Shown here: one piece after another, positions 9,628-28,089 of the stretch
Layout: the number at the start of each line of letters is the position of its first letter
How positions within the stretch are numbered: the first letter of the stretch is position 1
Assembly (NCBI GenBank): GCA_035380245.1
Contig: DAOSXA010000001.1
Location: 145,925-209,924, forward strand
DNA: 64,000 bases
Reading direction: 5' to 3'
Source of the DNA: Candidatus Zixiibacteriota bacterium
GTDB lineage: Bacteria > Zixibacteria > MSB-5A5 > GN15 > FEB-12
Program-made: the position numbers and the translations under genes
Notes under the pieces: generated by a model
The model's input: only the letters and a program-made list of their open reading frames with translations
The model's database searches: none
What the model was told of the DNA's origin: nothing

Positions 9628-10071
9628 TTATTCTTCTTTCATTCCACCATGGCGATAATACCATCGAATCACATCACCGTTGTCGGGAGTTACCCGGTCA
9701 CAGGCGGTGGGGAGTATTTCATCGTTAACGGTGTAAATCCAGAAATACCCGTCCGGCCCGCCGACCTCGTCGATATGAGTCACGAATGCTCCCTGCACTG
9801 AAGTCATGTTCTTGACCTTGAACGCTTTTTGAAGCAGTTGCAGAACAGTGAGGGAGTCCACGCCGGTCATTTCGATCACGACCGAGTCGCGGGGGTTATC
9901 GGGCTGGAGATAGACAAAATCCACACCACCGGGTGGTTCCGGCTGATCGTCGCTGGAACAGGCCGCGAGGATCATGGTAACGGTCAGGGCAGCCATCGCC
10001 AGCAGGATTAATGACCTGGTTCCAAGGAGAGCCTTCTGGTTCGATAGCTCCGGCTGCAAAATCGGTCTCAT
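9628..10071 (-). CDS. DUF4430-like lipoprotein
   Basis: 147 aa with lipobox ILAAC. FVTHIDEVGGPDGYFWIYTVNDEILPTACDRVTPDNGDVIRWYY resembles the DUF4430 (transcobalamin-like) fold. Confidence 0.45.
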   Translation of the reverse strand: MRPILQPELSNQKALLGTRSLILLAMAALTVTMILAACSSDDQPEPPGGVDFVYLQPDNPRDSVVIEMTGVDSLTVLQLLQKAFKVKNMTSVQGAFVTHIDEVGGPDGYFWIYTVNDEILPTACDRVTPDNGDVIRWYYRHGGMKEE

Positions 10072-10875: not shown

Positions 10876-12612
10876 CTACATACTCACCTTCGTAACGGTT
10901 GCTTTCTGAGTAAAGCTCACTAGCTGGCTGCCGGGAGTGTAAGTTCCCCCACTATAAAGACCGTCTACCGCCGTGCCGGTCGTGCTGCCGCCGGTGTAGA
11001 CGTTATAGGTTGATCCCGTTTTAAGCGAAGACGACGAGAACACCACCGACTGGTACGACTTGGACGGCATGAAGGTAAAGAGCGTCTCACCCGAGGTCGT
11101 TTGCAGATTAAGCAGTTTCCCCGCCCGTTGTGTGCTCCAGAAAGTCATCATGACCGAGCATTGCGATGAGGAACTCCCCGGCCCCTGTGCCATGCCGGAA
11201 CTTCCCAGGGCCAGCAGATACCCGCCGGTTATCGAAAACGAAGCATCATAATCGATAGCACCGTTGCCGGAAGAAGTAGGGCCGTTGATAATGATGATTC
11301 CGTCGGACATGCGAATGGACCCGTTGATATCAATACCGTCCCCGACCGAGGTAATCGCTATGTAGCCACCGTTGACGTACAGATAATCGCCTGAGGCTAC
11401 CGGCTGACCCGGTCCGGAATCGCCGCCGCCGGCCACGTTGATTGCGTCGTCACTCGATACGATATGCATCTCACCGCCGTTGATAGTGATATCCCCGTCC
11501 GCGCTTTCGATTCCCTCGTAACATTTTGTGATGTTTATCTTTCCATCTTCGATTGTCAAATCGCTGTCGGCATGGATACCGTCATCAGCGGAAGACAGAG
11601 TGAGTGAACCGCCGTTAACGATCAGGACATTATTGGAATGAACAGCATCGTCGGCCGCACTCACATCGATCGTGCCGCCATCGATTTGTACCAACACCTC
11701 CGCCTTGATCCCCTTAGCCGAGGCATCACCGCTGACGCTGTAGCTGCTGCCGCCGCCCGAGACTATGGAAATTGTCCCGCCCGTAATTAATGCATCGGTG
11801 GCGGCGTCGATAGCATCTCCGCCCGCCGTAATATCAACGGTGCCTTCTTCGATTGCCACATATCCCCGACCGCTATCTTCATCGTTGGTTGATTTGAGAC
11901 CGTCACCGTCGGCGTTGACCGTTACTTCTCCCCCCCTGACGATAAGATAATCCTTACCGCGAATACCGTCGTCGACCGAGGTCACTTCAACCTGTGCTCC
12001 GGCAATGATCAAACCGTCCTTGCTTGCGACGGCGTCGTTGTAATTACCATCGATGCGCAACAACCCGCCGCCGTATATCGTCAAATCGGCCTTGCTGAAC
12101 AGAGCCGCGTTTGGTTCATCTTCACCCGGGTCATCGTAGTAGTAGGATGATCCGTCAACAAGACTGCTCTCGGTTCCTTCCGGAAGGATGATCACCACTT
12201 TCTCGGCATCGGCGACATGTATCGGTGCGCTGGTAGTGCAATTTATCGATGCTCCGTTCAGGATCAGCCTTACCACTTCCTCGTCATCGGTATCGACAAT
12301 AACCTGTCCGTTGCTAAGGTTCCCATTGAAACGATATGTCCCCGCCGCAGTCACGGTCATCACGCTGCCGTTAATCTCGATTCCATCATCGTTCGCCTGA
12401 ATACTGCTGCCGTTGAACTGGACTTCGACAACCTCCGACTCATCCCAGACATAGTCGTTCAAATCTTCATGATCAGTAACATTGACCGAATCGTAGTCGT
12501 TGTTGTTGTTCTCTTCATCGTTTGTGTCCGTTACTGTATCATTGTCGCAGGCCGTCAGTGCGATTGTCGCCATGGCGCACATCAGCCACAGCCACAACTT
12601 GTTCATTTTCAT
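10876..12612 (-). CDS. Secreted parallel beta-helix lipoprotein (Cthe_2159-like carbohydrate-binding family)
   Basis: 578 aa with lipobox ALTAC. Repetitive G/D-rich beta-helix rungs (VVRLILNGASINCTTSAPIHVADAEKVVIIL; DGIRGKDYLIVRGGEVTVNADGDGLKS; DDAVHSNNVLIVNGGSLTLSSADDGIHA). Confidence 0.65.
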   Translation of the reverse strand: MKMNKLWLWLMCAMATIALTACDNDTVTDTNDEENNNNDYDSVNVTDHEDLNDYVWDESEVVEVQFNGSSIQANDDGIEINGSVMTVTAAGTYRFNGNLSNGQVIVDTDDEEVVRLILNGASINCTTSAPIHVADAEKVVIILPEGTESSLVDGSSYYYDDPGEDEPNAALFSKADLTIYGGGLLRIDGNYNDAVASKDGLIIAGAQVEVTSVDDGIRGKDYLIVRGGEVTVNADGDGLKSTNDEDSGRGYVAIEEGTVDITAGGDAIDAATDALITGGTISIVSGGGSSYSVSGDASAKGIKAEVLVQIDGGTIDVSAADDAVHSNNVLIVNGGSLTLSSADDGIHADSDLTIEDGKINITKCYEGIESADGDITINGGEMHIVSSDDAINVAGGGDSGPGQPVASGDYLYVNGGYIAITSVGDGIDINGSIRMSDGIIIINGPTSSGNGAIDYDASFSITGGYLLALGSSGMAQGPGSSSSQCSVMMTFWSTQRAGKLLNLQTTSGETLFTFMPSKSYQSVVFSSSSLKTGSTYNVYTGGSTTGTAVDGLYSGGTYTPGSQLVSFTQKATVTKVSM

Positions 12613-12683
12613 ATTCGCATTCTTTCCAGCACATTCAGGTTAAAATCCGAAACGCACATCAATGTCTATATCATGAGGGGGAA

Positions 12684-12717
12684 AGAGCCGAGCGTCGGTA
12701 GCCTGACGCACGGCTCT
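12684..12717 (-). terminator. Hairpin downstream of the CotH-family gene
   Basis: 12-bp stem with one mismatch (agagccgagcgtc/gacgcacggctct), followed on the minus strand by TTCCCCC. The U-tract is weak. Confidence 0.3.
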
Positions 12718-12802
12718 TTGGCAAGCAGAGAGCCCCCGTTATTTCTCAGTCAGTTCCGTGAACGTTATTCACGGATTTTTCTTAACTTCCTTTTCCGTTT
12801 CC

Positions 12803-15800
12803 TTACGGACATGCCACCGGCGCCGGGCCGGAGCTGAACATGTAGGAGACCAGGTAAACCAGATCAGAGATATCCGGATCGCAGCCCCCGTCTCCGTTGA
12901 TGTCCGCTTCCGCATAGTAATGGTCGATGCAAACCACTCCGTCGGGATCGTCGCATAACGGCGCCGGTCCACTCTGGAACATATAGGTTACCAGGTAAAC
13001 CAGGTCTGCGATATCGGGAGCGCCGCCGCTGTGGTTGATGTCCGCCCGGTTCAAACAGCAGTCATCACCGATCACTACGTTCGATGCTCCCGGAGTCGGT
13101 GTATCGAAGAAGATCCAACTGGAGCCGCCATCAGGCCAACGTCCCTCACTGGTATCGGTGGTCTGAGCCCCGAAGGTGTAGCTGTCGATCACTTCATTGC
13201 CTGCCGTCAGTCGCCCGAACAGACCGATTGCCTCACCACTGGCGCCTAACTTGAAATTAGCATGAAGAGGACCATCTTCACTGTCATCATCGCACCAGAC
13301 CAGCATAAATCCGCCGGCTTCCAGTGTAGTATCCGGGAAAGGCCATTGGGTGGTGTTAGCCAGGTCATCGGTTAGAAACAGGCCGGTCATATCAACCGCG
13401 TTCGGTCCGGGATTGTATATCTCGACCCAGTCTTCGTAAGAGCTGGTCTCATCCATATTGACGCCGTCGTTGTCGGCCAGGAATTCATTGATGTAGAGTG
13501 TGATCGTTTCCGGTACCACGTTCGAGGCTCCCGGCGTCGGGGTGCCAAAGAATACCCAATTACTGCTGCCGTCGGGTAAACGTCCCTCACTGGTATCGGT
13601 GGTCTGAGCTCCGAAGGTGTAGCTGTCGATCAGTTCATTACCTGCGGTCAAGCGTCCGAATATGCCGATTGATTCACCACTGGCGCCTAACTTGAAATTA
13701 GCATGAAGGGGACCGTCCTCTTCATCATTGTCACACCAGACCAGCATGAAGCCGCCGGCTTCGAGCGTAGTATCCGGGAAAGACCACTGGGTGGTGTTAG
13801 CCAGATCGTCAGTCAGGTACAGGCCGGACATATCCACCGCGTTCGGTCCGGGATTGTATATCTCCACCCAGTCTTCGTAAGAGCTGGTCTCATCCATATT
13901 GATGCTGGCGTTGTCGGCGAGGAATTCGTTGATGTAGAGCGTGACCGTTTCCGACACCACGTTCGAGGCTCCCGGGGTGGGAGTGTCGAAGAAAATCCAG
14001 TTGCTGCTGCCGTCGGGTAAACGTCCCTCACTGATGTCGGTTGTCTGGGCTCCGAAAGTATAACTGTCGATTAGTTCATTACCTGAAGCCAGTCGTCCGA
14101 ACAAGCCAATTGCCTCACCACTGGCGCCTAACTTGAAATTAGTATGAAGGGGCCCATCCTCTTCATCATCGTCACACCAGACCAGCATGAAGCCACCGGC
14201 TTCGAGCGTGGTATCCGGGAAGGACCACTGGGTGGTGTTAGTCAGATCATCGGTCAGGTACAGCCCGAGCATATTTACCGGATCAGGCCCGGGGTTGTAT
14301 ATCTCGACCCAATCTTCGTAAGAGCTGGTCTCATCCATGTTGATGCTGGCGTTGTCGGCGAGGAATTCGTTGATGTAGAGCGTGACGGTTTCCGACGCCG
14401 TGTTCGATGCTCCCGGTGTGGGCGTATCGAAGAAAACCCAGGTTGCGCCTCCGTCGGTCGACCGGCCTTCACTGGTGTCGGTTGTCTGCACTCCGAAGGT
14501 GTAGCTGTCGATCAGTTCGTTGCCCGAGGCCAGTCGTCCGAACAGACCGATCTCTTCACCGTCCCCGCTCAGTTTGAAATTGGTATGCAACGGGCCGTCT
14601 TCTTCATCGTTGTCGCACCAGACCAGCATGAAACCGCCGGCTTCGAGCGTCGTGTCCGGGAAGGACCATTGCGTGGTGTTGGTCAGGTCGTCGGTCAGGA
14701 ACAGGCCAAGCATGTCAACCGGGTCCGGTCCGGGATTGTATATCTCGACCCAGTCCTCGTAGGTGTCGGTCTCATCCATGATGACACTGTCGTTGAGGGC
14801 GAGGAATTCGTTGATATACAGGACTACCGTTTCGGGATTGCTGGAGTTTTGATTCTCAGCGCCGGGAGTGGCAACACTCATCAATTGCCAGGCCCCGGTG
14901 CCGTTAGCCCAGCGACCCCAACTCACATCGGAGGCCAGCGCCGGGAATGTCACCTGATCGACCACAACATCGTCGTCAATCAGAAAAACTTCTTCGCCGT
15001 CGCCGTCCAGTTTGAACGGGGCGTGAAGACTACCCTCGCCCGGCTCTTCATCCGCCCATACCACGATGTACTCGCCGGGCTGGAGGGTAGTATCGGGAAA
15101 CACATAATCGGGGCTGCCTTCCCAATGGTCGGTCAGTCCGAGTCCGTTAAGCGAAATAGCACTTTCGCTGATATTGGCTACTTCGATCCAATCATCGAAA
15201 TCACCGAATTCGTCCGATGCCGTCGTGTTGTTGGAGGCCATCAGTTCGTTGATTACCAGTCCGTCGATCCGTGTCCAGGAGCCAATCAGGTTGGTCAAAT
15301 AGGTATGACGGGCCTGGATAAAAGGTTGCAAGCCGGGAGCAGCCATACCGCCGCCGCCGCCCGGGCCACCGCCGATGTCGGTTGTCATGGCATTCTCGAA
15401 CTGGGTGGTTGTGTACATGCAGTTGGGATCGGCATAAACGTAGGGTCTTACCAGATCGCGCAGTTCTTCCATCCGGGCAAACAGGGTGTCGGGATAAGCC
15501 GGACCCGCCATGAGCTTTTTCATGTGCCCCAGGTAGAGGTAATCATAAGCGGAAATCTGATAAAATCGTTCGGCCAACGGTCGTTCCTGGCCGAACTGCT
15601 GATTGTAATAATACGGTGATAATTGTTTTAACTGTGTTGAGGTCATGCCGTCATTATACACGCCCCAGGCCATATTCAAGTCCCATTTGGCGAAAACCAT
15701 GCGGTCATCGACATCACGGTGATACACGTAGTAGTTGGCGCAACGCCCGACATAACTGTCAAGATTGACCGTAAAATTGTCGATCGCCAGCATCGCCATA

Positions 15801-16552
15801 GCGGAGTTGACATCGACTATGTTATGCATCGTATCAGGAAGCATCGCCAGCGAAGTGTTGTTGAGCACGTCACAGAACTCGATCAGATCCGACCAGTCGT
15901 TTTCCTCTTCATTGGTCTTTAGTTCGTAAGAACTGTAATAGGATGACTGGTTGGTGCCGAGATATTCGAGCGAACCGTGATCGTCACCTTTCCAGAGATT
16001 GCCTTCTTCGCTCTCACCGTAACGGCTCTCGATCATTTCCTGATCGAACTGCTCAACCAGTACATAGACACCCCATAAGGTGCCGTTGATATACAGGTTG
16101 GCGTAGTTGGTGCGAACCGTCGCCAGGCCGAGCGCTTCACATAACTCGTAAGCGCAAATTTCACGTACGAAGCTGGGATCGGAATAACAGTTATTCAGGT
16201 TGAGTTTATCTAAACCGTAAACAGTCTGTCCTTCGACGTATTCGTCGATATCCAGCTTGAACGGTTTCTTCACTCCCGGATAGGAATAGCTGCTCAATCC
16301 CTTAAAACGCACCCCGATACTGTCGAAGTGCACATCTTCCCAGTCGAACTGAGCCGCGATGTATGGGATGTCGTCATAATGCTCGTAGTTATAAGCACAT
16401 AGATCGTACCAGTTGCTATCGTAGAAAGTAAGGTGAATTTCATGTACGGCGTCGCCGTCGAACATGGGATGGGTGCCTGGCGCCAGACTGGCCGACAGTA
16501 CCGGCGACAGCAGCAATACAAGCAGACAGGTTAGGGTCAGTTTCCTATGCAT
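12803..16552 (-). CDS. Secreted CotH-family kinase-like protein with five lamin-tail domains and C-terminal dockerin-like repeats
   Basis: 1249 aa.
- Signal peptide: LLVLLLSPVLSASLA.
- CotH-type N-terminal domain: KKPFKLDIDEY...LNLNNCYSDPSFVREICAYELC...LYINGTLWGVYVLVEQ.
- Gly-rich linker.
- 5 LTD repeats: LYINEFLA..DWVEIYNPGP..LYLTDD..FMLVWCD..FKL.
- 2 EF-hand/dockerin-like repeats: DINGDGGCDPDISDLVYLVSYMF. Confidence 0.85.
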   Translation of the reverse strand: MHRKLTLTCLLVLLLSPVLSASLAPGTHPMFDGDAVHEIHLTFYDSNWYDLCAYNYEHYDDIPYIAAQFDWEDVHFDSIGVRFKGLSSYSYPGVKKPFKLDIDEYVEGQTVYGLDKLNLNNCYSDPSFVREICAYELCEALGLATVRTNYANLYINGTLWGVYVLVEQFDQEMIESRYGESEEGNLWKGDDHGSLEYLGTNQSSYYSSYELKTNEEENDWSDLIEFCDVLNNTSLAMLPDTMHNIVDVNSAMAMLAIDNFTVNLDSYVGRCANYYVYHRDVDDRMVFAKWDLNMAWGVYNDGMTSTQLKQLSPYYYNQQFGQERPLAERFYQISAYDYLYLGHMKKLMAGPAYPDTLFARMEELRDLVRPYVYADPNCMYTTTQFENAMTTDIGGGPGGGGGMAAPGLQPFIQARHTYLTNLIGSWTRIDGLVINELMASNNTTASDEFGDFDDWIEVANISESAISLNGLGLTDHWEGSPDYVFPDTTLQPGEYIVVWADEEPGEGSLHAPFKLDGDGEEVFLIDDDVVVDQVTFPALASDVSWGRWANGTGAWQLMSVATPGAENQNSSNPETVVLYINEFLALNDSVIMDETDTYEDWVEIYNPGPDPVDMLGLFLTDDLTNTTQWSFPDTTLEAGGFMLVWCDNDEEDGPLHTNFKLSGDGEEIGLFGRLASGNELIDSYTFGVQTTDTSEGRSTDGGATWVFFDTPTPGASNTASETVTLYINEFLADNASINMDETSSYEDWVEIYNPGPDPVNMLGLYLTDDLTNTTQWSFPDTTLEAGGFMLVWCDDDEEDGPLHTNFKLGASGEAIGLFGRLASGNELIDSYTFGAQTTDISEGRLPDGSSNWIFFDTPTPGASNVVSETVTLYINEFLADNASINMDETSSYEDWVEIYNPGPNAVDMSGLYLTDDLANTTQWSFPDTTLEAGGFMLVWCDNDEEDGPLHANFKLGASGESIGIFGRLTAGNELIDSYTFGAQTTDTSEGRLPDGSSNWVFFGTPTPGASNVVPETITLYINEFLADNDGVNMDETSSYEDWVEIYNPGPNAVDMTGLFLTDDLANTTQWPFPDTTLEAGGFMLVWCDDDSEDGPLHANFKLGASGEAIGLFGRLTAGNEVIDSYTFGAQTTDTSEGRWPDGGSSWIFFDTPTPGASNVVIGDDCCLNRADINHSGGAPDIADLVYLVTYMFQSGPAPLCDDPDGVVCIDHYYAEADINGDGGCDPDISDLVYLVSYMFSSGPAPVACP
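13073..15271 (-). repeat. Intragenic tandem array encoding the 5 LTD repeats (441-bp period)
   Basis: Protein repeats start at residues 574, 721, 868 and 1015, an exact 147-aa spacing. A DNA motif at 13141 recurs at 13582. The four proximal units look roughly 85-90% identical by eye. The fifth (14834-15271) is diverged. Confidence 0.85.
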
Positions 16553-16593
16553 GATTCTTCTCCTCTGTAGTAGCAGTTGACCTCAATATAATA

Positions 16594-17268
16594 CTAAAAT
16601 TTCTCTTCGTCGAAAAATAAGCTAACTCCGCGCAGATCACGCAGATGTTTCAATTCGCTAATGAATTCGTTGCTTCGGTTTTCCTGTCGCAATTGAACGT
16701 AGTAGGCCAGCTCCAGGGTATCCGATGCTCCCGAGGACCTCACATTGATGACCTTGTGATGTCGACAATGTTTATCCATAACCGATAAATACGGCGGTGA
16801 GGTATCCCCGTTGGGCGTATAGAAAAACTGAAGCAGATATTCTCTTTTTTGTGGTACTCCGACCGCTGCTTTCGACAACAAATAAACGATCAGACCGATT
16901 ACCAGAGCACCGAGGATTGCCAGTCGATGATAACCGACACCGGCTGCCATTCCCACCGCAAGGCCGAAAAATATAAAAATGATATCGCGAGTTTCTTTCA
17001 CGGCAGTCCGAAAACGGATGATCGACATCGCCCCCACTAATCCAAACGCCCGGGCGAGATTGTTGCCGATCACCATTATCACCAGCGCCGTAATCATCGA
17101 CAGCAAAACAATCGAATGCGCAAAGTTGGCGGAATAACCCGGCCCCTGTTGTGTCCGTCGATAGAGCCAGGCTATGAACAAACTACATATAAGGGCTACA
17201 ATGATGTTTACAATGATATCTGCTGTTGTCGTAGGGAACAGGTTCAATCCCTGCAGGTCGTTAAACAT
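16594..17268 (-). CDS. DUF4956-like integral membrane protein
   Basis: 224 aa, about 4 TM segments. Conserved-looking ARAFGLVGAMSIIRFRTAVKETRDIIFIF, plus a soluble C-terminal domain. Its start overlaps the VTC gene stop by 8 nt. Confidence 0.65.
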   Translation of the reverse strand: MFNDLQGLNLFPTTTADIIVNIIVALICSLFIAWLYRRTQQGPGYSANFAHSIVLLSMITALVIMVIGNNLARAFGLVGAMSIIRFRTAVKETRDIIFIFFGLAVGMAAGVGYHRLAILGALVIGLIVYLLSKAAVGVPQKREYLLQFFYTPNGDTSPPYLSVMDKHCRHHKVINVRSSGASDTLELAYYVQLRQENRSNEFISELKHLRDLRGVSLFFDEEKF

Positions 17269-18073
17269 AGCGAGCCCCTCGTGGGTTAGTCATGTTCACG
17301 GCTCTCCCTGTTGTAGAATCGTCAAATGACCGTAGATGAGCACTTGAACAGCGACCGTGTGAATCCAGGCATATTGCATATTTCGAAAGAGCCAGTCGTG
17401 GCAGTTGATAACGTTCGATAAGCGACATGATCCATTGAGGAAGACCGCCGGCAAATTTAACTTCCATTATGAAATAACCGGGAAGAGCACTTCTCAGCGG
17501 CTCGTCGCTGAAGAGATCCTCAAGCGAAGGGAAAGGATTGCTGCGGATATTCTTATCGAATGTAATACGGAGAGCATGATCGAAGACACCTTGAAATGCC
17601 TCGCGTTCGTATACGATCAATATCGTCGACCCGAGAGCGAAACGATGGAAATTATAAAGGAAGCGAGCGGCATTATTAAGCGAATCACCGTTGCTGTCGT
17701 CGGCGAGGATGTATCTTTCCGGAGTATGTGAACTTAACACCGATGGAACATCCTTCCACCGCAACGCCGCTCGGTTCTTGGCTATGTAATTGACCTGTTT
17801 ACGTTTGATCTCCAAAAATACTATGTTGTCGTTGGCTGGGCGATCGTAGCCCCGTATGCGAAACTTCTTACGTGTTTTCAGTCCCTCAATTTTTTCGCAA
17901 TAACAGGCCATGTGCCTGGTGTCGAAGTAAATACTGCGAACGGTGTATTCATGTTCGGCCCTGTCTCGGGCGAAGGGATCGAATTCGACGAATGGCCTGA
18001 TTTCATCGCGAATCGTATCCCGTAGATAGTCAGGAACGAGGTACTTGTATTCGAGACGAAACGGTGCTTCCAT
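17261..18073 (-). CDS. VTC-domain (triphosphate tunnel metalloenzyme, polyphosphate-polymerase-like) protein
   Basis: The likely start MEAPFRLEYKYLV is the ATG at 18073, which overlaps the upstream TGA. Basic beta-strand pattern typical of VTC/CYTH tunnels (LEYKY, VRSIYFDT, RKKFRIRGY, FLEIKRK, LRITFDKNIR, FIMEVKF). Confidence 0.72.
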   Translation of the reverse strand: MEAPFRLEYKYLVPDYLRDTIRDEIRPFVEFDPFARDRAEHEYTVRSIYFDTRHMACYCEKIEGLKTRKKFRIRGYDRPANDNIVFLEIKRKQVNYIAKNRAALRWKDVPSVLSSHTPERYILADDSNGDSLNNAARFLYNFHRFALGSTILIVYEREAFQGVFDHALRITFDKNIRSNPFPSLEDLFSDEPLRSALPGYFIMEVKFAGGLPQWIMSLIERYQLPRLALSKYAICLDSHGRCSSAHLRSFDDSTTGRAVNMTNPRGARYV

Positions 18074-19200
18074 CAGAAAATCCCCGCTGCTGATATGAGG
18101 ATTTCTTTGGCTCCCTGCGCAATGCTCTTGGATCCGCAACGTACGTCACATTGTATCACCGTACCGGGGGGTGGGGTGTTGGTGCTGAACGGGACCTGGG
18201 CCAGGGCATAAGCTACCTGTCTGCCTTCCAGCACTTGTACTTGTTCTTCAACCCGTTTTAACTTAGCTGTCCCCGTGTATATATCCGACTGCCACCCTAT
18301 TATCACTGAATCGGAACTCGCTACTGTTCGGCTGTCGTTCCACTCCAGGGCCAATAATGCCAAACGATCGGAGTCATCATGGATTATCAGTACAGTATCG
18401 GTTACCTGTGCCCTGCAGATCATACCCGTGATAGGAGCGATGATGGTAAAGGACGCAATCCGCTCCTCAAGAACAGAGATTTGTTCCTTGAGCCCGGCAA
18501 TTTGCGTACGAATCATGTCTAATTCTTCGGCCTTGGCGCCGGCTCGAGCTTCCGTTAATTTGGCTGAGGCAAGGTCTCGGTCAAGTTCAAGCAGGGTTAA
18601 TTCGCCTTTGGCCACCTCATATTCCTCCGGCGAAACCATACCACGTTCTTGAAGAGCTTCCAGGCGGTCAACCACCCGTTTCTTATCATCCGCGGCTGCC
18701 GAGGCATACTGTTCTTCGCATTCAGCCACGCGGATTTCTTCCGGTCTCACCCCGGATGCACTGACCTTCAAGTTGGCCTGCGCCAATGCCAGCTCCGATC
18801 TGAGTCGAGTCAGTTCTTCAGTTGCCTCACTTGCTTGAAGATAACCGATGGTATCACCGAAATTGACATGACCTCTCAGCAGTACTCGATCATCAATTGT
18901 CAAACCGATCTGGCCTTCGGTCGAGGCCTGAAATACGACATAAGATTCGACCGATCCGGTGTAGTTGTTACGCAGCGTGGCCGCAAGCTGGCCATCGTTG
19001 CCGCGTACCAGAACCCAACTGCGGGCGGCCAGGATACGGCCAACCGCATGATAAGTACAGGGGATCTTGATCGGTACTACCAACAGTCCAACGACTATCA
19101 GTAAAAAAATGAGAAACAAATACGGGCGTTTGTTTGTCACTCTCAAGAAATCTGCCAGCCTTGTGTGATCGTGTAAAAACGATTGTGTGATGAGACGCAA
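18073..19200 (-). CDS. HlyD-family periplasmic adaptor (membrane fusion protein)
   Basis: 375 aa. N-terminal TM anchor, a long coiled-coil hairpin (LTRLRSELALAQANL...ELDMIRTQIAGLKEQISVLEERI), the lipoyl-like APITGMI motif, and a C-terminal beta domain. Confidence 0.6.
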   Translation of the reverse strand: MRLITQSFLHDHTRLADFLRVTNKRPYLFLIFLLIVVGLLVVPIKIPCTYHAVGRILAARSWVLVRGNDGQLAATLRNNYTGSVESYVVFQASTEGQIGLTIDDRVLLRGHVNFGDTIGYLQASEATEELTRLRSELALAQANLKVSASGVRPEEIRVAECEEQYASAAADDKKRVVDRLEALQERGMVSPEEYEVAKGELTLLELDRDLASAKLTEARAGAKAEELDMIRTQIAGLKEQISVLEERIASFTIIAPITGMICRAQVTDTVLIIHDDSDRLALLALEWNDSRTVASSDSVIIGWQSDIYTGTAKLKRVEEQVQVLEGRQVAYALAQVPFSTNTPPPGTVIQCDVRCGSKSIAQGAKEILISAAGIF

Positions 19201-19601: not shown

Positions 19602-20207
19602 CTAGCGGTCCTGCGTGCGTTCTTTATCCTGTGGCGGTGGTTTTCTGTCACCCATGGGGGGCGGCATTCTTCCATCTCGACCATCCATTGGCGGTTCGGG
19701 AGGAGTGAACGGATTACCTTCCATGCGTTCGGGAGGAGGGATACGTCCTCCCTGGAAGATGTTAAGAATGAGACCTTTCAGTCGCTCTTCCTGCTCCGGT
19801 CGACATATCTGCCTTATCTGCTCGAAATGTGCGAACAGCATCTGCTGTATTTCCGACTGCCTGGAGCCTATTTCCTCAGCCACCCGATTGACCAGTACGG
19901 TGTCGGGATTATCGGCAAATACCTCACTGAAAAGCTGTTCGTTCAACTGAGCCACCTGAAGTCTTATCGAGTCCGTGAAGTGCATATACTCACAACGCAT
20001 CGTTCTCAGAGAATCAGCCTGCTGTGCGTCGAACTGGAGTTCTTGAATCAGAAAATCCTGTGGATCATTGCCGCGCTCCTGCGGCTGTGGCGGTCGATCA
20101 AAATACTGAAACCAAAGCAACGTCACCGAGACGATGTTCAGGCATACCAGTACAATGATAATTCCGATACCATACCTGGTTTGATTGTTCTTTTGCACCT
20201 CGGTCAT
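19602..20207 (-). CDS. Spy/CpxP-like periplasmic protein with Pro-rich tail
   Basis: 201 aa. TM/signal anchor, helical core with an LxxxQ-type motif (LQFDAQQADSLRTM), and a P-rich C-terminus. Its ATG overlaps the upstream stop (TAATG). Confidence 0.45.
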   Translation of the reverse strand: MTEVQKNNQTRYGIGIIIVLVCLNIVSVTLLWFQYFDRPPQPQERGNDPQDFLIQELQFDAQQADSLRTMRCEYMHFTDSIRLQVAQLNEQLFSEVFADNPDTVLVNRVAEEIGSRQSEIQQMLFAHFEQIRQICRPEQEERLKGLILNIFQGGRIPPPERMEGNPFTPPEPPMDGRDGRMPPPMGDRKPPPQDKERTQDR

Positions 20208-20563
20208 TACTCCTGGGCCAGATCAAGTGTCTCGGAAACACTGGGCAAAGAGTATTCGTTGGCCACTGCTTCCACGTTGTTTCTTCTATATTCATTCCGG
20301 TCTTCCTGGACGTTCCGTATTACCATTATAGTAGTTACGGCATTGAGCAGGATGACAAGCGAAAGCAACGATGCTGCCAGGCGACCTCGAAAAAGAGACA
20401 ACCAGACTGGATTAATTTCGCCGGACTCGGTTTCCTTGATTTTTGCCATGAGCCGCGTGTAGAAATGCGGCCCAGTCTCAATGCTCTCCGTAGTATCAAG
20501 TCCGGCAAGCGTTTGTTCAATTTTACGGTCGATTTGTGCCAGGTCGTTATCAGTTCTTTTCAT
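20207..20563 (-). CDS. Putative anti-sigma factor (single-pass membrane protein)
   Basis: Small ORF directly after the ECF sigma gene, with a central TM segment (LAASLLSLVILLNAVTTIMVI). The SD AGAGGG lies 6 nt before the ATG at 20563. Assignment is by position only. Confidence 0.35.
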   Translation of the reverse strand: MKRTDNDLAQIDRKIEQTLAGLDTTESIETGPHFYTRLMAKIKETESGEINPVWLSLFRGRLAASLLSLVILLNAVTTIMVIRNVQEDRNEYRRNNVEAVANEYSLPSVSETLDLAQE

Positions 20564-20625
20564 ATATAGCCCTCTGTGAAACTTCAATCCTTTGGACGAC
20601 AATCAGCACCGTTACTTGTGTTTCC

Positions 20626-21210
20626 TCATGATTTTTTAACACTTCTCTCGTAATAAGTACGAAGTTTCTTCTTCAAGTTCTCGCGAGCGCGGTATATCAA
20701 AGATTCTACCGCCGACAGCGAAGTTCCGAGAGTGTCTGCAATTTCCTGGTATGTCATTCCGTCGTATGTACTCAAGATCAATGCCACATGCTGCTTTTTA
20801 GGAAGAGAATTCAGAGCTTGGGTCAATATATCGAGACTTTCCTTGTCTTCCAAAATCCTGTCGGGGCCGGTCCATGAGGGCGCCGGGATATCGACAGCCC
20901 TGGCATCCAACCTGACAGTTCCCTGCGATCCGCCGCCTCTTTTCAGGCGGCTGTATTGCTTGAGCAGATCCAGTGATTTTGAGACAGCTATCCGATGAAT
21001 CCAGGTGCCCAAACTGGATTGTTGTCGAAACCGATTGATTGAGAAGTATACTTCAATGAATGTCTCTTGAGCGAGATCCTCGGCATCGGTTTTATCCCGT
21101 ACGAACCTGTAACAGATATTAATCACCTGGTTTTGGTACAACTCCACCAGGCGCTGAAAAGCTCCTGATTTCCCTTCCTGAATGTCACTTAACAACTGCT
21201 CTTCGTTCAT
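20626..21210 (-). CDS. ECF-type RNA polymerase sigma-70 family factor
   Basis: Region 2 (DAEDLAQETFIEVYFSINRF) and region 4 HTH (MTYQEIADTLGTSLSAVESLIYRAR). The likely start is MNEEQLL at 21210. Confidence 0.85.
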   Translation of the reverse strand: MNEEQLLSDIQEGKSGAFQRLVELYQNQVINICYRFVRDKTDAEDLAQETFIEVYFSINRFRQQSSLGTWIHRIAVSKSLDLLKQYSRLKRGGGSQGTVRLDARAVDIPAPSWTGPDRILEDKESLDILTQALNSLPKKQHVALILSTYDGMTYQEIADTLGTSLSAVESLIYRARENLKKKLRTYYERSVKKS

Positions 21211-21382
21211 AAGGAATCCAAGCGACCGTCTGCCCCCTCCAAGATTCGACAACAGGCATTAAAACTGCAAGGGAAAAAGATTCAGGTTTGTTTGATACAA
21301 TTCTTGCGAAATTTATAACGATTAAAATAGAAGAACGTCGTGATTTGTTAACTACAATCCGGTTACCGAGTATGATACGACT

Positions 21383-22360
21383 CTATTCCCGGTAATCCGA
21401 TTCCAGTGTGTCGGCCCAGCTCTCAAAGAATGGATCTCCGGTGAAACGAGTTAATTGCCGGAGTTGTCTGATATGTAATTTATGGTAGTTGGCATCGTAA
21501 TGATGAAAGGTCAAACCGTAGAAACTCGGATTTCCCGGTCGGCGATAAGACGGGATATAGTTTCGGACAGTACTTATCGCTTCCTGAATAAGCCTGTCGG
21601 CATCGGCATTACCCGTCATTTGCCAATAATCGTAAAGCCCGTAAATCCCAAAAATAAAACCGTTCAAGGTCATGCTGGGAATCGGTTCAGTAACGTATTC
21701 CTCGATCCAAAAACAACCAGGCGTATCGTAAAAAACCGTCCAGGGAGTGTACTCCCCACGCGGACGCAGCATGGTCTGAAACACTTCATCGGCCAACTGC
21801 CGATATCGCTCGTCGCTGGTTAATGAATATAAACGACAAAGCGCCGATAACGCCTGCCCCTGTGCCATACCTGAGAAAAACGGCTTCGTTATTAAAGCGT
21901 CGTCGCGGCCGTGTACGCGGTAGTCAAATTGATACGGGAAATACAGGGCGCTGTCGATATGAATCCCCTGTGTCACCAGACAATCGACATACCGCCGAGC
22001 TGTAGTCAGGAATGCCGAATCTCCGTGATCGTGAAACAAATCAATATAGGCCAGCGCTCGGTGACACATCATAACCGGGTGGTAATAGAGCGTGTCATGC
22101 CATTCGAACAGGAGAATTCCCGAAGAATCGCGCGGTCCCGCAGTATCGGGGAGAAGATTCAATCCGGCGTCCGTGTAAGGGAGAGAATCCCAGGGAAGAT
22201 TAACCAGTTCGAATTGGAACTGTACGCACGAGTCCGGATATTCTATCGGTCGATCATCACGTCCTTTGGCTTTGTGGTCGGAATGACATGATAAGATCAA
22301 CAACAGCAGCGCCAGACACACCACTGCCGGTATTTTCAGTGTGTTGGTGTTGAGAGTCAT
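21383..22360 (-). CDS. Lipoprotein with D-glucuronyl C5-epimerase C-terminal-like domain
   Basis: 325 aa with lipobox LILSC. The pattern FFSGMAQGQALSALCRLY...FWIEEY...LNGFIFGIYGLYDYW resembles the C5-epimerase family. Confidence 0.45.
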   Translation of the reverse strand: MTLNTNTLKIPAVVCLALLLLILSCHSDHKAKGRDDRPIEYPDSCVQFQFELVNLPWDSLPYTDAGLNLLPDTAGPRDSSGILLFEWHDTLYYHPVMMCHRALAYIDLFHDHGDSAFLTTARRYVDCLVTQGIHIDSALYFPYQFDYRVHGRDDALITKPFFSGMAQGQALSALCRLYSLTSDERYRQLADEVFQTMLRPRGEYTPWTVFYDTPGCFWIEEYVTEPIPSMTLNGFIFGIYGLYDYWQMTGNADADRLIQEAISTVRNYIPSYRRPGNPSFYGLTFHHYDANYHKLHIRQLRQLTRFTGDPFFESWADTLESDYRE

Positions 22361-25268: not shown

Positions 25269-26141
25269 CTAGTGCGATTTTATTCCACTAACCACGTGTA
25301 ATACCGATCCATCAAACCGGTAGGTGCGGTAAGGGGGTATGGTATCAGTAACATACAGAAAGGAAGCATCTGGAGCGATGACCGGGTCAAAGAAGCCGCT
25401 CAATCCAAGAATTTCGGTAACCCTATGCGTGGTGAAATCATACAGAGCGGGCTGCCCCCCGGAGGCGTTGAAGACGAGCTTGCGGTTGCCATCTATCAAA
25501 CTACATCTAGAATCCGCGCCTAAAAGTGGACTACCCGAATCGTCGACCAGCACTGCCTCGCTATCGTCCCGGAGGCTCACGACCTTGATTCGAGTTCCGT
25601 TGTACAGCAAAGAGTCCTTCCCTATAGGTGCCAGGCTGAAACAGAAGTCCATGAGCACTCCGAGGTGCAACTCCTCCAAGGCTCCGCTGTCGAAGTCGTA
25701 AACCCAAACATATGTTTCAGGTCCTTCATCTGTTCTCCCCCCGAAGAGAATGTAGAGCCGTCGTAGTCCGCTGTCGATACATGCCGCGTCTGCACTTATT
25801 CCCAGCAACATCTCCAGTTGCGTCTGCCCGCCGGTGTTGATGTTCAGCGTATGGTATGCAATGTCCTTGCTACCAATGAACAGGGTGCTGTCGTCGAGCC
25901 AATTGACAAACGGCCAATCTGTGCCGCGAGGCCACGACTCTACGGTTGCCATGAGGTCGCCGCTAGGAAGCAGCACCTTCAGGTAAGAGGAGTCATTGGC
26001 AAGTACTACAGTTGCGGTTAGTCCACGGTTAGGAGAAATGCACTCTACAGATCCATCTATGGGCACCCCCCCGACCCTTGCTTCACATGATGCACCGAGT
26101 ACGACCAGTGCAATTGCGACCAAGGCTATAGCACTCTTCAT
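25269..26141 (-). CDS. Lipoprotein, beta-propeller-like; candidate immunity protein for the upstream RHS toxin
   Basis: The SD AGGAG lies 7 nt before the ATG at 26141. Lipobox VVLGASC. Located 64 nt downstream of the rhs stop. The immunity role is inferred from position only. Confidence 0.45.
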   Translation of the reverse strand: MKSAIALVAIALVVLGASCEARVGGVPIDGSVECISPNRGLTATVVLANDSSYLKVLLPSGDLMATVESWPRGTDWPFVNWLDDSTLFIGSKDIAYHTLNINTGGQTQLEMLLGISADAACIDSGLRRLYILFGGRTDEGPETYVWVYDFDSGALEELHLGVLMDFCFSLAPIGKDSLLYNGTRIKVVSLRDDSEAVLVDDSGSPLLGADSRCSLIDGNRKLVFNASGGQPALYDFTTHRVTEILGLSGFFDPVIAPDASFLYVTDTIPPYRTYRFDGSVLHVVSGIKSH

Positions 26142-26205
26142 GATTGACTCCTTTAGCGATAGCACTCCATCAATACGTTTTCTCGCAACATATGTACAAT
26201 GCTGG

Positions 26206-28089
26206 TCAATGTGCCGAAGCAGCACTCAACCACAAAAGAGGCGGCTTAGGCATCCTCCAGCGCGTGTAGAGGAAATACTCAGGCGGCCTCTTATACGAGA
26301 AGCTAGCTTTATTGTGATCAGGCTTCCACGCTTCGGCCAAGCCAGGCTCAGAGTTACATAGCGTTGTAGGGTTAATGTGCACGCCAGCCTGAAATGAACC
26401 ACTCCGGCTAGGGTTCTGCACAGCACCAGGCAGAACCACGTCGAGATGACCGCTCAATTGCTGCCCGCCTGGCAGCACGTCTCCCTTCTGAGCAGCCACC
26501 ACTAGGTGGCCCGAGTTCACCAGATCCCCTACACGCGACTCGGCACAAGCGGACCACTCGCCAGACGAGCTGATGTCGTCGTATAGCTCGTTCGCTGACC
26601 TGGTTTGAGTTATCCCGTCGTCTTTCATTGCCCCTTCGAACGCAGTAGGGAACTTCATGGGGTCAGAAGATGCCGATTCATGTGCAGCGAGGATCTGAGT
26701 GAATTCAATTGTTGTTCTGACACATGCCAGTTTCTCGCCAATATGTTCATCGTGCACGAATTGTCCTGCGTCGGCCATGAACGACGTGATCACTGTTTCC
26801 CTCGTATCATGGTACTTGCCCCATAAGGCATCAGCCTCTACGCTCGACGCCGACAACACGGACGGCGGCAATTCACCATCTCCATCGCTCGAAGAAGGAG
26901 CGACAGTGCTCGGTGATGCTGCCCCCCAACTTGCCGTCCAGGCATCCAGCTTTGCCGCCCCTATATTGGCGAGAGTGGTGCCTGCCGTAAAGGCCAAACC
27001 GCCGACATCCCATTTGCCTTGCCGGGCGCTGTTATAGCCAAACCTTATCCCGTGTCCTTTGAGTCCTCCTATACACCCCAGTAGCTTTCCTTCCGCCTGG
27101 CTCATAAGCGCTAAGCCTAATGCGCTCCAACCTGCGTCACGCCCGCCGTATTTGAAGGCATTGTAGATGTTGCCGACTTGCTTAGCCGCACTGTACGCAG
27201 CATATGCCTTTAGTGCCCAAGCCAACGCAGCGACAGCCCAGTTTCCGTCCTGATCGACCATAGACACAGGGTTATTGGCACAATATACAAACCCGGATGC
27301 GAACTGTGAAGCCTTATCTATAGAGGTGAAACGTCCAAGATCTGAATCATAGTACCTGGCACCGAAGTAGTAATAATCGAATGAACCCTCATCGTCCTTC
27401 TCTTTTCCCGTGAAGCGCATGTCTGTCTTGTAGTTACCCCATGCCTCCATGGTGCCACCGTAAGGGTAATAGTTGTAAAATTGGACCACCGCGGCTGTGT
27501 CAAATATTCCTGAAGGATCGTTCATGACAATCCTCGTGGACCCCAAGTGGTCGCCTATGAAGTAATTCAGCTGAGCATTGTCGTTCTCGTGGAAAGTCGC
27601 AATTCGGCCACTGGGACCGTTAACATATAGGTCTATCACATCATCGTCTTGATCGAACGTGGCGATAAGAGTGCTGCCTTCATACAGATAGTATGTGTAC
27701 ACAGTGTTCTGCTTGACGCACAGCGTGCCTCCACCACCTCCAATCGCCTCGGTTGTAACACCCCCTAATTCAGGAAGGCTATTGACTCCGAATTCTATTC
27801 CGGGCACAGTGTCATCGTCACACTCTGTCCAGTAGTTGTAACGGTACTTCTTCATGATGCGCTGACCGGTGTGGTCGTAGCTACAGTCGACCGTACAATT
27901 GACACCTGGAATTGTGTTTGGGGGCTGCACCGCTCGTGTGACCAGATTGCGATAATCGTAGTACATTGAATCAAGGCCCTTTGCCGAGTCGGCAACCAAG
28001 TTTCCCAGCGCATCATAGTACATAGATTCACCGACAGGCATATCGCTCGTTCTGGCCAATCTCGAGGACCCGGTCGTGGTATCGTACAC
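26206..28089 (-). CDS. RHS/YD-repeat protein fragment: 5'-truncated repeats, RHS core, about 340-aa unassigned C-terminal toxin region
   Basis: YD repeats (YYDALGNLV, YDYRNLV) and RHS core (YYFGARYYDSDLGRFTSIDKA...NNPVSMVDQDGNW). The reading frame stays YD-like (RYYAYNALGNRTQTIFDGDTITYVYD) up to about 28161, where repeat B begins. No N-terminal domain and no SD. Confidence 0.8.
   Translation of the reverse strand: MYDTTTGSSRLARTSDMPVGESMYYDALGNLVADSAKGLDSMYYDYRNLVTRAVQPPNTIPGVNCTVDCSYDHTGQRIMKKYRYNYWTECDDDTVPGIEFGVNSLPELGGVTTEAIGGGGGTLCVKQNTVYTYYLYEGSTLIATFDQDDDVIDLYVNGPSGRIATFHENDNAQLNYFIGDHLGSTRIVMNDPSGIFDTAAVVQFYNYYPYGGTMEAWGNYKTDMRFTGKEKDDEGSFDYYYFGARYYDSDLGRFTSIDKASQFASGFVYCANNPVSMVDQDGNWAVAALAWALKAYAAYSAAKQVGNIYNAFKYGGRDAGWSALGLALMSQAEGKLLGCIGGLKGHGIRFGYNSARQGKWDVGGLAFTAGTTLANIGAAKLDAWTASWGAASPSTVAPSSSDGDGELPPSVLSASSVEADALWGKYHDTRETVITSFMADAGQFVHDEHIGEKLACVRTTIEFTQILAAHESASSDPMKFPTAFEGAMKDDGITQTRSANELYDDISSSGEWSACAESRVGDLVNSGHLVVAAQKGDVLPGGQQLSGHLDVVLPGAVQNPSRSGSFQAGVHINPTTLCNSEPGLAEAWKPDHNKASFSYKRPPEYFLYTRWRMPKPPLLWLSAASAH

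Follow-up and report, generated by a model that had tools for sequence, protein, structure and literature searches.

A conserved gene trio encoding a divergent periplasmic adaptor, a Vtc4-like tunnel enzyme and a DUF4956 membrane protein: a candidate polyphosphate export system

A Zixibacteria locus and its conserved three-gene core

The stretch of DNA analysed here, a window of 64,000 nt from a Zixibacteria metagenome-assembled genome (coordinates are window positions throughout), contains a run of five minus-strand genes. In the order of transcription they encode a divergent periplasmic adaptor protein (PAP, or membrane-fusion protein), a stand-alone VTC protein of the triphosphate-tunnel type, a DUF4956 membrane protein, a secreted protein that joins a CotH domain to five lamin-tail (LTD) domains, and a beta-helix lipoprotein of the Cthe_2159 family (Table 1). 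An initial annotation of this DNA had placed all five genes, and each is present there as an open reading frame (ORF). The families that it had assigned also agree with profile searches, with Pfam recovering VTC, DUF4956, CotH, LTD and Cthe_2159, and with the adaptor being recognised by its predicted structure and its tip motif. The adaptor most likely starts at the GTG at 19140, which gives a protein of 355 aa, the same as the database call, and the VTC product read from the ATG at 18073 is identical to the NCBI call. Reading the junctions from the sequence, one nucleotide belongs both to the adaptor stop and to the VTC start (TGATG, 18071-18075); the initial annotation had the right position, but gave the string as ATGA, a 4-nt overlap. 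It was correct on the 8-nt overlap between VTC and DUF4956 (ATGTTTAA), the 41-nt gap from DUF4956 to CotH and the 190-nt gap from CotH to the beta-helix gene. With this junction the adaptor and VTC genes appear to be translationally coupled. A promoter and terminator scan across 9.5-21.5 kb returned signal at background level only and was uninformative.

Loci for comparison were gathered by way of adaptor homologues and VTC homologues, and GTDB species genomes were scanned for more, which gave 80 loci; the resulting set of 84 unique loci was analysed with family hidden Markov models (HMMs), 82 of the loci being testable for the order of the core genes. They derive from Zixibacteria, Krumholzibacteriota, Calditrichia, Ignavibacteria, Bacteroidota, Latescibacterota, KSB1, Eisenbacteria, Marinimicrobia, WOR-3 and Stahlbacteria, so that the sample covers about a dozen phyla of the Fibrobacteres-Chlorobi-Bacteroidetes (FCB) group and its neighbours. 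DUF4956 lies directly 3' of VTC in 81 of the 82 testable loci, and the adaptor lies directly 5' of VTC in 72 of them; look-ups from the adaptor side, with distant members included, recovered the order PAP-VTC-DUF4956 in 4/4 cases. A core order shared by 72-81 of 82 loci excludes chance adjacency. Furthermore, since this order is constant and CotH and Cthe_2159 are variable, the unit under selection is PAP-VTC-DUF4956. The five genes had at the outset been taken for one unit, which does not hold: CotH is found at 46/84 loci and Cthe_2159 at 5/84, and neither is encoded by the closest relative, L001 (adaptor 52% identical), which keeps the trio. Similarly, of the expected association of VTC, DUF4956 and CotH, the first two are co-conserved and CotH is optional. 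The idea that the adaptor is an addition specific to diderms fits the survey, with no PAP in two monoderm plasmid loci and none listed for the published Gram-positive loci. The host itself is a diderm, because genes for Kdo (3-deoxy-D-manno-octulosonic acid) and lipopolysaccharide (LPS) biogenesis, namely KdsA, KdsC, KdsD, LptC and a lipid A acyltransferase, flank the locus.

Variants of the core are seen in a number of loci. In the WOR-3/Stahlbacteria-type loci L013, L014, L017, L025, L029, L039 and L068, VTC-DUF4956 occurs without an adaptor. VTC is preceded in L013 and L017 by SBBP beta-propeller proteins of ~520-545 aa, sorted by the type IX secretion system (T9SS) and lying within a row of similar-sized ORFs, and in L068 by a T9SS-sorted GH16/malectin protein. 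The ORFs 5' of VTC in such adaptor-less loci were considered as CotH candidates and turned out to be SBBP beta-propeller proteins. L040 and L080 encode a shortened adaptor of ~286 aa.

Table 1. Features of the locus (window positions; all on the minus strand)
Feature	Position	Strand	Basis
Periplasmic adaptor (PAP / membrane-fusion protein) gene	18073..19140; full ORF 18073-19200	-	ORF, GTG start
RLS motif at adaptor alpha-hairpin tip	18631..18666	-	Family alignment and AF2 model
Stand-alone VTC (triphosphate-tunnel) protein, 270 aa	17261..18073	-	Pfam VTC
DUF4956 membrane protein, 224 aa	16594..17268	-	Pfam DUF4956
Secreted CotH-LTD protein, 1249 aa	12803..16552	-	Pfam CotH and LTD x5
CotH domain	~15392-16312	-	Pfam
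Five lamin-tail (LTD) domains	~13106-15277	-	Pfam
Cthe_2159-family beta-helix lipoprotein, 578 aa	10876..12612	-	Pfam Cthe_2159, lipobox
ECF sigma factor	20626-21252	-	Pfam
Putative anti-sigma factor	20207-20602	-	Pfam scan
Metal_resist/CpxP-like periplasmic protein	19602-20207	-	Pfam

The adaptor, the tunnel enzyme and the membrane protein

Pfam gives no match for the adaptor, even at E<=10, and the NCBIfam HlyD/EmrA matches of this protein fall far under the cut-off (44.6 vs 393 bits) and cover the coiled-coil region only. An AlphaFold2 (AF2) model built from 101 family members (predicted local distance difference test, pLDDT, 93.9; predicted template-modelling score, pTM, 0.76) displays a beta region (residues 27-105), a four-helix alpha-hairpin (106-231), a second beta region (234-341) and a short C-terminal helix, with the hairpin flanked by split lipoyl and beta-barrel domains. 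A hydrophobic N-terminal helix (residues 7-23) with basic residues before it is predicted from sequence and model to be a transmembrane (TM) anchor. In a Foldseek search of the PDB with this model the top 50 matches are all PAPs, led by MacA (3.5e-14) and including EmrA, AcrA, MexA and ZneB. The family also preserves the RLS motif, R161-x3-L165-x6-S172 (numbered from the TTG at 19146), with the arginine present in 99/101, the leucine in 92/101 and the serine in 87/101 sequences of the family alignment. In the model it spans the loop between helices 135-167 and 173-202, which is the predicted tip of the hairpin. The same pattern, RxxxLxxxxxxS, constitutes the TolC-binding tip of MacA, AcrA and MexA, with RLT as the counterpart in HlyD, and this role is backed by mutational evidence (PMC3391258). 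Thus, despite the lack of a Pfam match, the PAP fold and the RLS motif uphold the HlyD-type assignment made in the initial annotation.

A membrane-proximal domain does not fit into the ~187 beta residues, which makes the layout of the adaptor EmrA-like. Adaptors of this type with extended hairpins pair with transporters that have no periplasmic domains (PAP review, PMC4446572). Together with EmrA and the other adaptors of known tripartite pumps, the window protein shares the PAP fold, the N-terminal TM anchor, the long hairpin and the RLS tip; unlike the known sets, it is too divergent for Pfam and its outer-membrane factor (OMF) gene is usually unlinked. A word-index search recovered only 2 relatives, and the rest of the family was reached when 1.84 billion representatives were searched exhaustively with a profile. 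That search returned 2813 matches, 422 of them at E<=1e-30 and nearly all of these ~350 aa long and matched over their full length, so the family comprises at least 422 clusters at 50% identity; every sampled NCBI/JGI name is 'hypothetical protein'. A distant relative, in locus L094, passes the Pfam thresholds for both HlyD_D23 (38.1 vs 30 bits) and HlyD_3 (26.4 vs 22.2 bits). Given the matching fold, the RLS tip motif and this member passing the HlyD thresholds, the modelled adaptor is best described as a genuine, if very divergent, PAP. The large 'hypothetical' family accordingly appears to consist of bona fide periplasmic adaptors, and a dedicated PAP family of this kind appears to be unreported in the searched literature. 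Four Calditrichia and Melioribacter loci have, at a distance of 5-6 kb from the core, an additional adaptor-like ORF of greater length (L027 3-1181, L034 2239-3513, L041 2998-4275 and L075 3891-5207 on the minus strand), which may be an ordinary efflux PAP caught by the HMM or may belong to a paralogous system. The one in L075 has near it an OEP gene on the opposite strand that is unrelated to the core.

Known tripartite pumps use an ABC, RND, MFS or PET engine. A scan of 31 of the larger window ORFs, which did not extend to several others >=150 aa, turned up no ABC, RND, MFS or OMF gene, and no ABC, RND, MFS or OEP family recurs in Pfam matches among 58 immediate neighbours of the core. This agrees with the earlier remark that a canonical inner-membrane transporter partner is lacking. 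The place of the engine would here be taken by the 224-aa MgtC-like DUF4956 protein and a soluble tunnel polymerase, DUF4956 being the sole candidate for the adaptor's partner in the inner membrane. In L094 the genes for adaptor, VTC and DUF4956 are followed after a 35-nt gap, on the same strand, by a gene for a 443-aa OEP (TolC-family) protein (Pfam 1.4e-32), and this operon is predicted to encode a complete tripartite set. The rarity of such linkage agrees with the usual state of OMFs, whose genes lie apart and serve more than one system. The envelope-spanning arrangement first proposed for the locus thus gains support from the PAP fold, the conserved RLS motif, the one OEP-linked locus and the lack of a canonical transporter.

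The second member of the core is a single-domain, predicted cytoplasmic protein without SPX or TM domains, which matches Pfam VTC at 8.9e-39 (133.9 vs a cut-off of 23 bits) over profile positions 2-231 of 235. Pairwise phmmer against the PDB gave E-values of 0.08-0.6 only, and a profile of 40 sequences was needed to reach yeast Vtc4 (3g3q at 2e-12; also 8i6v_E). Residues K10, R72, R74, K90, K99, Y155, R157 and R169 are invariant in the 40 homologues and align to Vtc4 K200, R264, R266, K281, K294, Y359, R361 and R373, respectively. In Vtc4, K200, R264, R266, K281, Y359 and R361 coordinate triphosphate and are required for polyphosphate synthesis (bioRxiv 10.1101/2023.01.27.525886). The triphosphate-binding set is therefore retained across the family, as the reading of the protein as a tunnel enzyme would lead one to expect. 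The HMMER alignment to Vtc4 ends at residue 182; beyond it, the invariant E204 (LEVKF) and S230-K231 (LSKY) occupy the expected relative positions in the Pfam match, and are plausibly the equivalents of the Mn-binding E426 and of S457/K458. K458 separates active Vtc4 from the inactive Vtc2/3. Together these features mark the protein as a putative, Vtc4-like polyphosphate polymerase. Our literature search on the characterisation of bacterial VTC proteins and on DUF4956 with VTC returned nothing functional.

The eukaryotic VTC complex (Vtc4/Vtc3/Vtc1; PDB 7YTJ, 8I6V) has a homologous tunnel domain with the triphosphate-binding residues kept, and offers the conceptual precedent of a polymerase that works with a membrane partner so as to pass its product across a membrane. 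It differs in having an SPX domain and a C-terminal three-helix TM channel domain, both of which are absent from the window protein, and DUF4956 is unrelated in fold to the Vtc1-type subunits according to Foldseek. The destination differs as well: the vacuole lumen in eukaryotes, as against the periplasm or exterior that the window system would supply.

DUF4956 matches its Pfam family at 1.7e-13 (51.1 vs a cut-off of 30.6 bits) and MgtC below threshold (16.8 vs 31.4 bits). It is strongly conserved, with 55-81% identity across phyla and a uniform length of 223-228 aa, and its membrane domain contains an invariant helix with the motif GNNLARAFGLVGAMSIIRFRTA. The AF2 model (pLDDT 73.6) shows five helices followed by a beta-alpha-beta-beta-alpha-beta domain. 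Foldseek recovers matches for this C-terminal domain only, and these are weak (E 1e-3 to 2e-2), to ACT folds and to MgtC-C 2lqj. As modelled, DUF4956 thus consists of an MgtC-like helical membrane domain and an ACT-like cytoplasmic C-terminal domain. It resembles the MgtC/SapB/YhiD family in the ACT-like domain and in having a GxxxG-rich motif within a hydrophobic N-terminal domain, and is unlike it in scoring below the family threshold, in its own invariant motif and in its obligatory pairing with VTC (81/82 loci). The initial annotation had cast DUF4956 as a conduit; structurally it does not resemble the Vtc channel of eukaryotes, and such a role is something that we infer from its place in the operon. 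In Bacteroides thetaiotaomicron a DUF4956 gene is paired with a DUF2490 gene (BT3498-3499), which provides the family's single clue on expression from a cultivable Bacteroidota: the DUF4956 gene is listed in the iron stimulon as 7.6-fold down, with a weak p-value of 0.175 (PMC10434189).

Secreted proteins and other neighbours of the core

The CotH-LTD protein gives strong Pfam matches to CotH (5.4e-55, 187.6 bits) and to five LTDs (4.6e-72), and its N-terminus, which begins MHRKLTLTCLLVLLLSPVLSASLA, is a signal peptide. It aligns to Bacillus cereus CotH (5jd9, 1.7e-15), with D265 and D291 at the NFD and WD positions. These two residues match D228 and D251 of Bacillus subtilis CotH, the catalytic and the metal-binding aspartate, respectively (PMC7821199), and the CotH domain is probably catalytically competent because both are kept. 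The four C-terminal LTDs form a tandem array at the DNA level (13068-14815; period 441 nt, 4.0 copies, 84% matches), which suggests a recent intragenic duplication; homologues carry 1-3 LTDs. The last ~100 aa (12806-13105) are Cys-rich and without a Pfam match, and contain two dockerin-like repeats of the form ADINxxGGxPDIxDLVYLVxYMFxxGPAP. Where the window protein has this C-terminus, homologues from Ignavibacteria and Bacteroidota have a T9SS tail (Por_Secre_tail), and the Cys-rich region may serve for sorting or anchoring in a lineage-specific way.

Counts of CotH are from a strict, domain-trimmed HMM cross-checked by Pfam; the first iterated CotH/LTD HMMs over-called CotH at 73 loci, being contaminated by T9SS tails and other shared domains. 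At 33 of the 46 positive loci CotH lies <=300 nt from the core on the same strand. Among the 46 loci with full 9-kb flanks, CotH is present in 27 and no CotH is found nearby in the other 19. A Pfam census of the 58 immediate same-strand neighbours recovered Por_Secre_tail (22), CotH (21), LTD (19), CHB_HEX_C_1 (8), Fn3_assoc (8), SBBP (5), Cthe_2159 (4) and Beta_helix (4). Cthe_2159 adjoins the core in 4 of the 5 loci that have it. The secreted CotH-LTD protein is hence an enriched, optional neighbour of the core, and Cthe_2159 a rare accessory. The window representative of the latter matches its family at 2.3e-97, has the lipobox LTAC and is a putative carbohydrate- or polyanion-binding surface protein.

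The co-occurrence of CotH, VTC and DUF4956, described in the initial annotation as seen in genomes and functionally uncharacterised, is indeed published for Gram-positive bacteria, where a group of cotH, polyphosphate polymerase (VTC) and DUF4956 genes, plus DUF4832, is an accessory of pel loci (Whitfield et al., bioRxiv 10.1101/768473 = PMC7112168). The triad is also visible in NELoc-2 of Clostridium perfringens (PMC2879425). In Streptococcus intermedius (SIR_1592-1594), deletion of DUF4956 or CotH changed Pel levels and lowered aggregation; according to the same paper, no DUF4956/VTC/CotH synteny was seen beyond pel loci (PMC12345266). That statement is contradicted by the window and by dozens of loci from the FCB group and neighbouring phyla without nearby pel; there are no pel or glycosyltransferase genes in the scanned window regions, and none are recurrent beside the core in related loci. 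As in the window, VTC of the Gram-positive accessory is immediately followed by DUF4956 with a secreted CotH beside them, and the function is uncharacterised there too. In contrast, the monoderm examples have no PAP, whereas the FCB-group loci add a dedicated upstream one, apparently translationally coupled in the window; furthermore, CotH of the window is fused to five LTDs, where Gram-positive pel loci have FN3 or DUF4832 partners instead. The two monoderm plasmid loci place the triad, without an adaptor, inside glycosyltransferase (GT2, GT4) clusters. A gene for a protein of ~308-348 aa located 5' of VTC in Planococcus and in C. perfringens NELoc-2 was considered as a monoderm adaptor and rejected (hhalign probability 0.7%; weak TIM-barrel match). 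Thus the triad is published, and both the PAP-polymerase coupling and the triad without pel genes appear unreported in the searched literature, in which no paper linking a PAP to VTC was found.

Directly 5' of the adaptor are genes for an extracytoplasmic function (ECF) sigma factor, a putative anti-sigma factor and a Metal_resist protein, an arrangement that is kept in L001 (8068-9660) and, by the neighbour census, is not recurrent at core loci of other phyla. They are a possible lineage-specific regulator, and their membership in the system is uncertain; the ECF sigma factor and the CpxP/Spy-like neighbour hint at control of the operon by envelope stress. Further genes surround this region. 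Just 5' of the sigma factor gene (21383-22360) is the gene for a secreted protein whose C-terminal domain is that of a D-glucuronyl C5-epimerase (7.3e-33), a family unusual in bacteria, which may point to surface glycan modification. A small DUF4430 lipoprotein gene (9628-10071) follows the beta-helix gene after ~800 nt in the same orientation and precedes the Kdo genes. Two overlapping minus-strand ORFs of 318 and 627 aa (25269-28089) have no Pfam match. A large flagellar cluster at 28888-55503 includes FapA, a FlhF-like signal recognition particle GTPase, FlhA, FlhB, FlgE and FliK, and the Zixibacteria genome therefore encodes flagellar components.

A candidate polyphosphate export machine and its alternatives

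In light of the above contextual and structural connections, we tentatively propose that PAP, VTC and DUF4956 form an assembly resembling a tripartite pump, which synthesises and extrudes polyphosphate or a related phosphate-rich product, a reading that we prefer for its economy and consider plausible though somewhat short of probable. Polyphosphate synthesis, a channel role for DUF4956, assembly of the complex, export of the product and use of polyphosphate by CotH are all steps that we infer. The cytoplasmic VTC tunnel enzyme would polymerise phosphate from ATP, as Vtc4 does, while docked on an inner-membrane oligomer of the MgtC-like DUF4956. On this oligomer the TM-anchored adaptor, of the hexameric type, would build a long alpha-helical sleeve through the periplasm, an EmrA-like layout without a membrane-proximal domain being the one found where the partner lacks periplasmic domains. 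The RLS tip of the sleeve would then engage a TolC-family OMF, and polyphosphate or a phosphate-rich product would be delivered outside. There, the product could be bound or used by optional surface partners, namely secreted CotH-LTD kinases, which in other phyla are often cargo of the T9SS, and at some loci Cthe_2159 beta-helix proteins. A stronger version, in which the trio is a fifth class of tripartite machine with a polymerase-coupled MgtC-like channel as its engine, and the first dedicated bacterial polyphosphate secretion system, with CotH and the LTD/beta-helix proteins using polyphosphate as phosphoryl donor or matrix, is in our view rather unlikely.

Several points weigh against the export proposal. 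At the periplasmic entrance TolC-type ducts select for cations, which does not suit a polyanion well, and an OMF gene is linked to the core in only 1 of ~88 loci (L094). The adaptor is absent from 8 loci of WOR-3/Stahlbacteria-type, Bacteroidetes and unclassified origin and from one Anaerolineae locus. The DUF4956 monomer model is only moderately confident (pLDDT 74), its membrane domain is uninformative in Foldseek, where neither the Vtc channel nor any transporter is matched, and MgtC, which this domain resembles, is known as a regulator and not as a channel. With regard to VTC, most of the tunnel residues are also present in other triphosphate-tunnel enzymes, which are hydrolases; counterparts of Vtc4 E426, S457 and K458 are not directly alignable, and a profile made from the C-terminal slice gave only spurious APC7 matches. 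In the searched literature no biochemical or genetic evidence was found for any bacterial VTC protein, and deletion of VTC in S. intermedius had no clear phenotype (PMC12345266).

Some of these points are also what would be seen if the trio were a phosphate-homeostasis or regulatory module, in which VTC makes or hydrolyses intracellular polyphosphate or triphosphate, the MgtC-like DUF4956 regulates by means of ACT metabolite sensing, and the PAP-like protein is a scaffold or sensor without a duct. This alternative draws on the sub-threshold MgtC matches of DUF4956 and its JGI label YhiD, on the resemblance of its ACT-like domain to MgtC-C 2lqj and the lack of a structural match between its membrane domain and any transporter or channel, on the S. 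intermedius genetics, which show altered Pel amounts and not product loss, with a silent VTC deletion, and on the single locus with a linked OMF gene. However, the near-invariance of the RLS motif in the 101 family members is hard to explain without an OMF partner, an OEP gene does lie directly downstream in that one locus, and the neighbours of the core are overwhelmingly secreted surface proteins. We also know of no PAP that acts as a stand-alone sensor, and we regard this alternative as unlikely. The duct could otherwise be real and its cargo different: DUF4956, PAP and OMF might export a cation, a small molecule or a polymer other than polyphosphate, with VTC hydrolysing ATP or triphosphate as an energiser or gate that replaces the ABC ATPase. 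PAP systems need an energy source and no other is encoded in the operon, triphosphate-tunnel enzymes do include hydrolases, and the location of the monoderm triad inside exopolysaccharide/glycosyltransferase clusters means that the product could be a glycan. Nevertheless, the protein belongs specifically to the VTC family and conserves the Vtc4 triphosphate-binding set, an invariant S-K pair stands where the polymerase-specific K458 is expected, and no glycosyltransferase is recurrent beside the core in the FCB group and neighbouring phyla; export of another substrate is, in our estimate, distinctly improbable.

A further alternative, which overlaps with the export model, would centre the system on CotH, as a device for extracellular phosphorylation of surface proteins or polysaccharides to which the trio merely supplies the donor, polyphosphate or an exported nucleotide, where ATP is lacking. 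CotH is the most enriched functional neighbour in both the census and the locus survey, it is a secreted protein, with a signal peptide in the window and T9SS tails elsewhere, its catalytic aspartates are retained, and the triad with CotH recurs in monoderms. Against this stand the 19 of 46 full-flank loci, and L001, in which the core has no CotH nearby and because of which the core must have a function independent of CotH; moreover, we know of no kinase of the CotH family that uses polyphosphate. We give this CotH-centred view only a small chance, and retain the synthesis and extrusion of polyphosphate or a related product as our tentative working model.

Every component of the system comes from a known family, and the coupling of a PAP to a polymerase is widespread and directly testable. 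Extracellular or surface polyphosphate has been reported for several bacteria, for which no export route is known to us, and to our knowledge no bacterial VTC-domain protein has been characterised; an operon that joins a Vtc4-like polymerase to an efflux-pump adaptor is thus a concrete and testable candidate for such a route. If the proposal is true, the tripartite-pump paradigm would gain a new kind of inner-membrane engine. The CotH/VTC/DUF4956 triad is recast from a Pel-specific accessory of Gram-positive bacteria to a widespread and autonomous surface module found from Zixibacteria to Bacteroidota, and the system could explain where secreted CotH kinases find their phosphoryl donor once they have left the cytoplasm.

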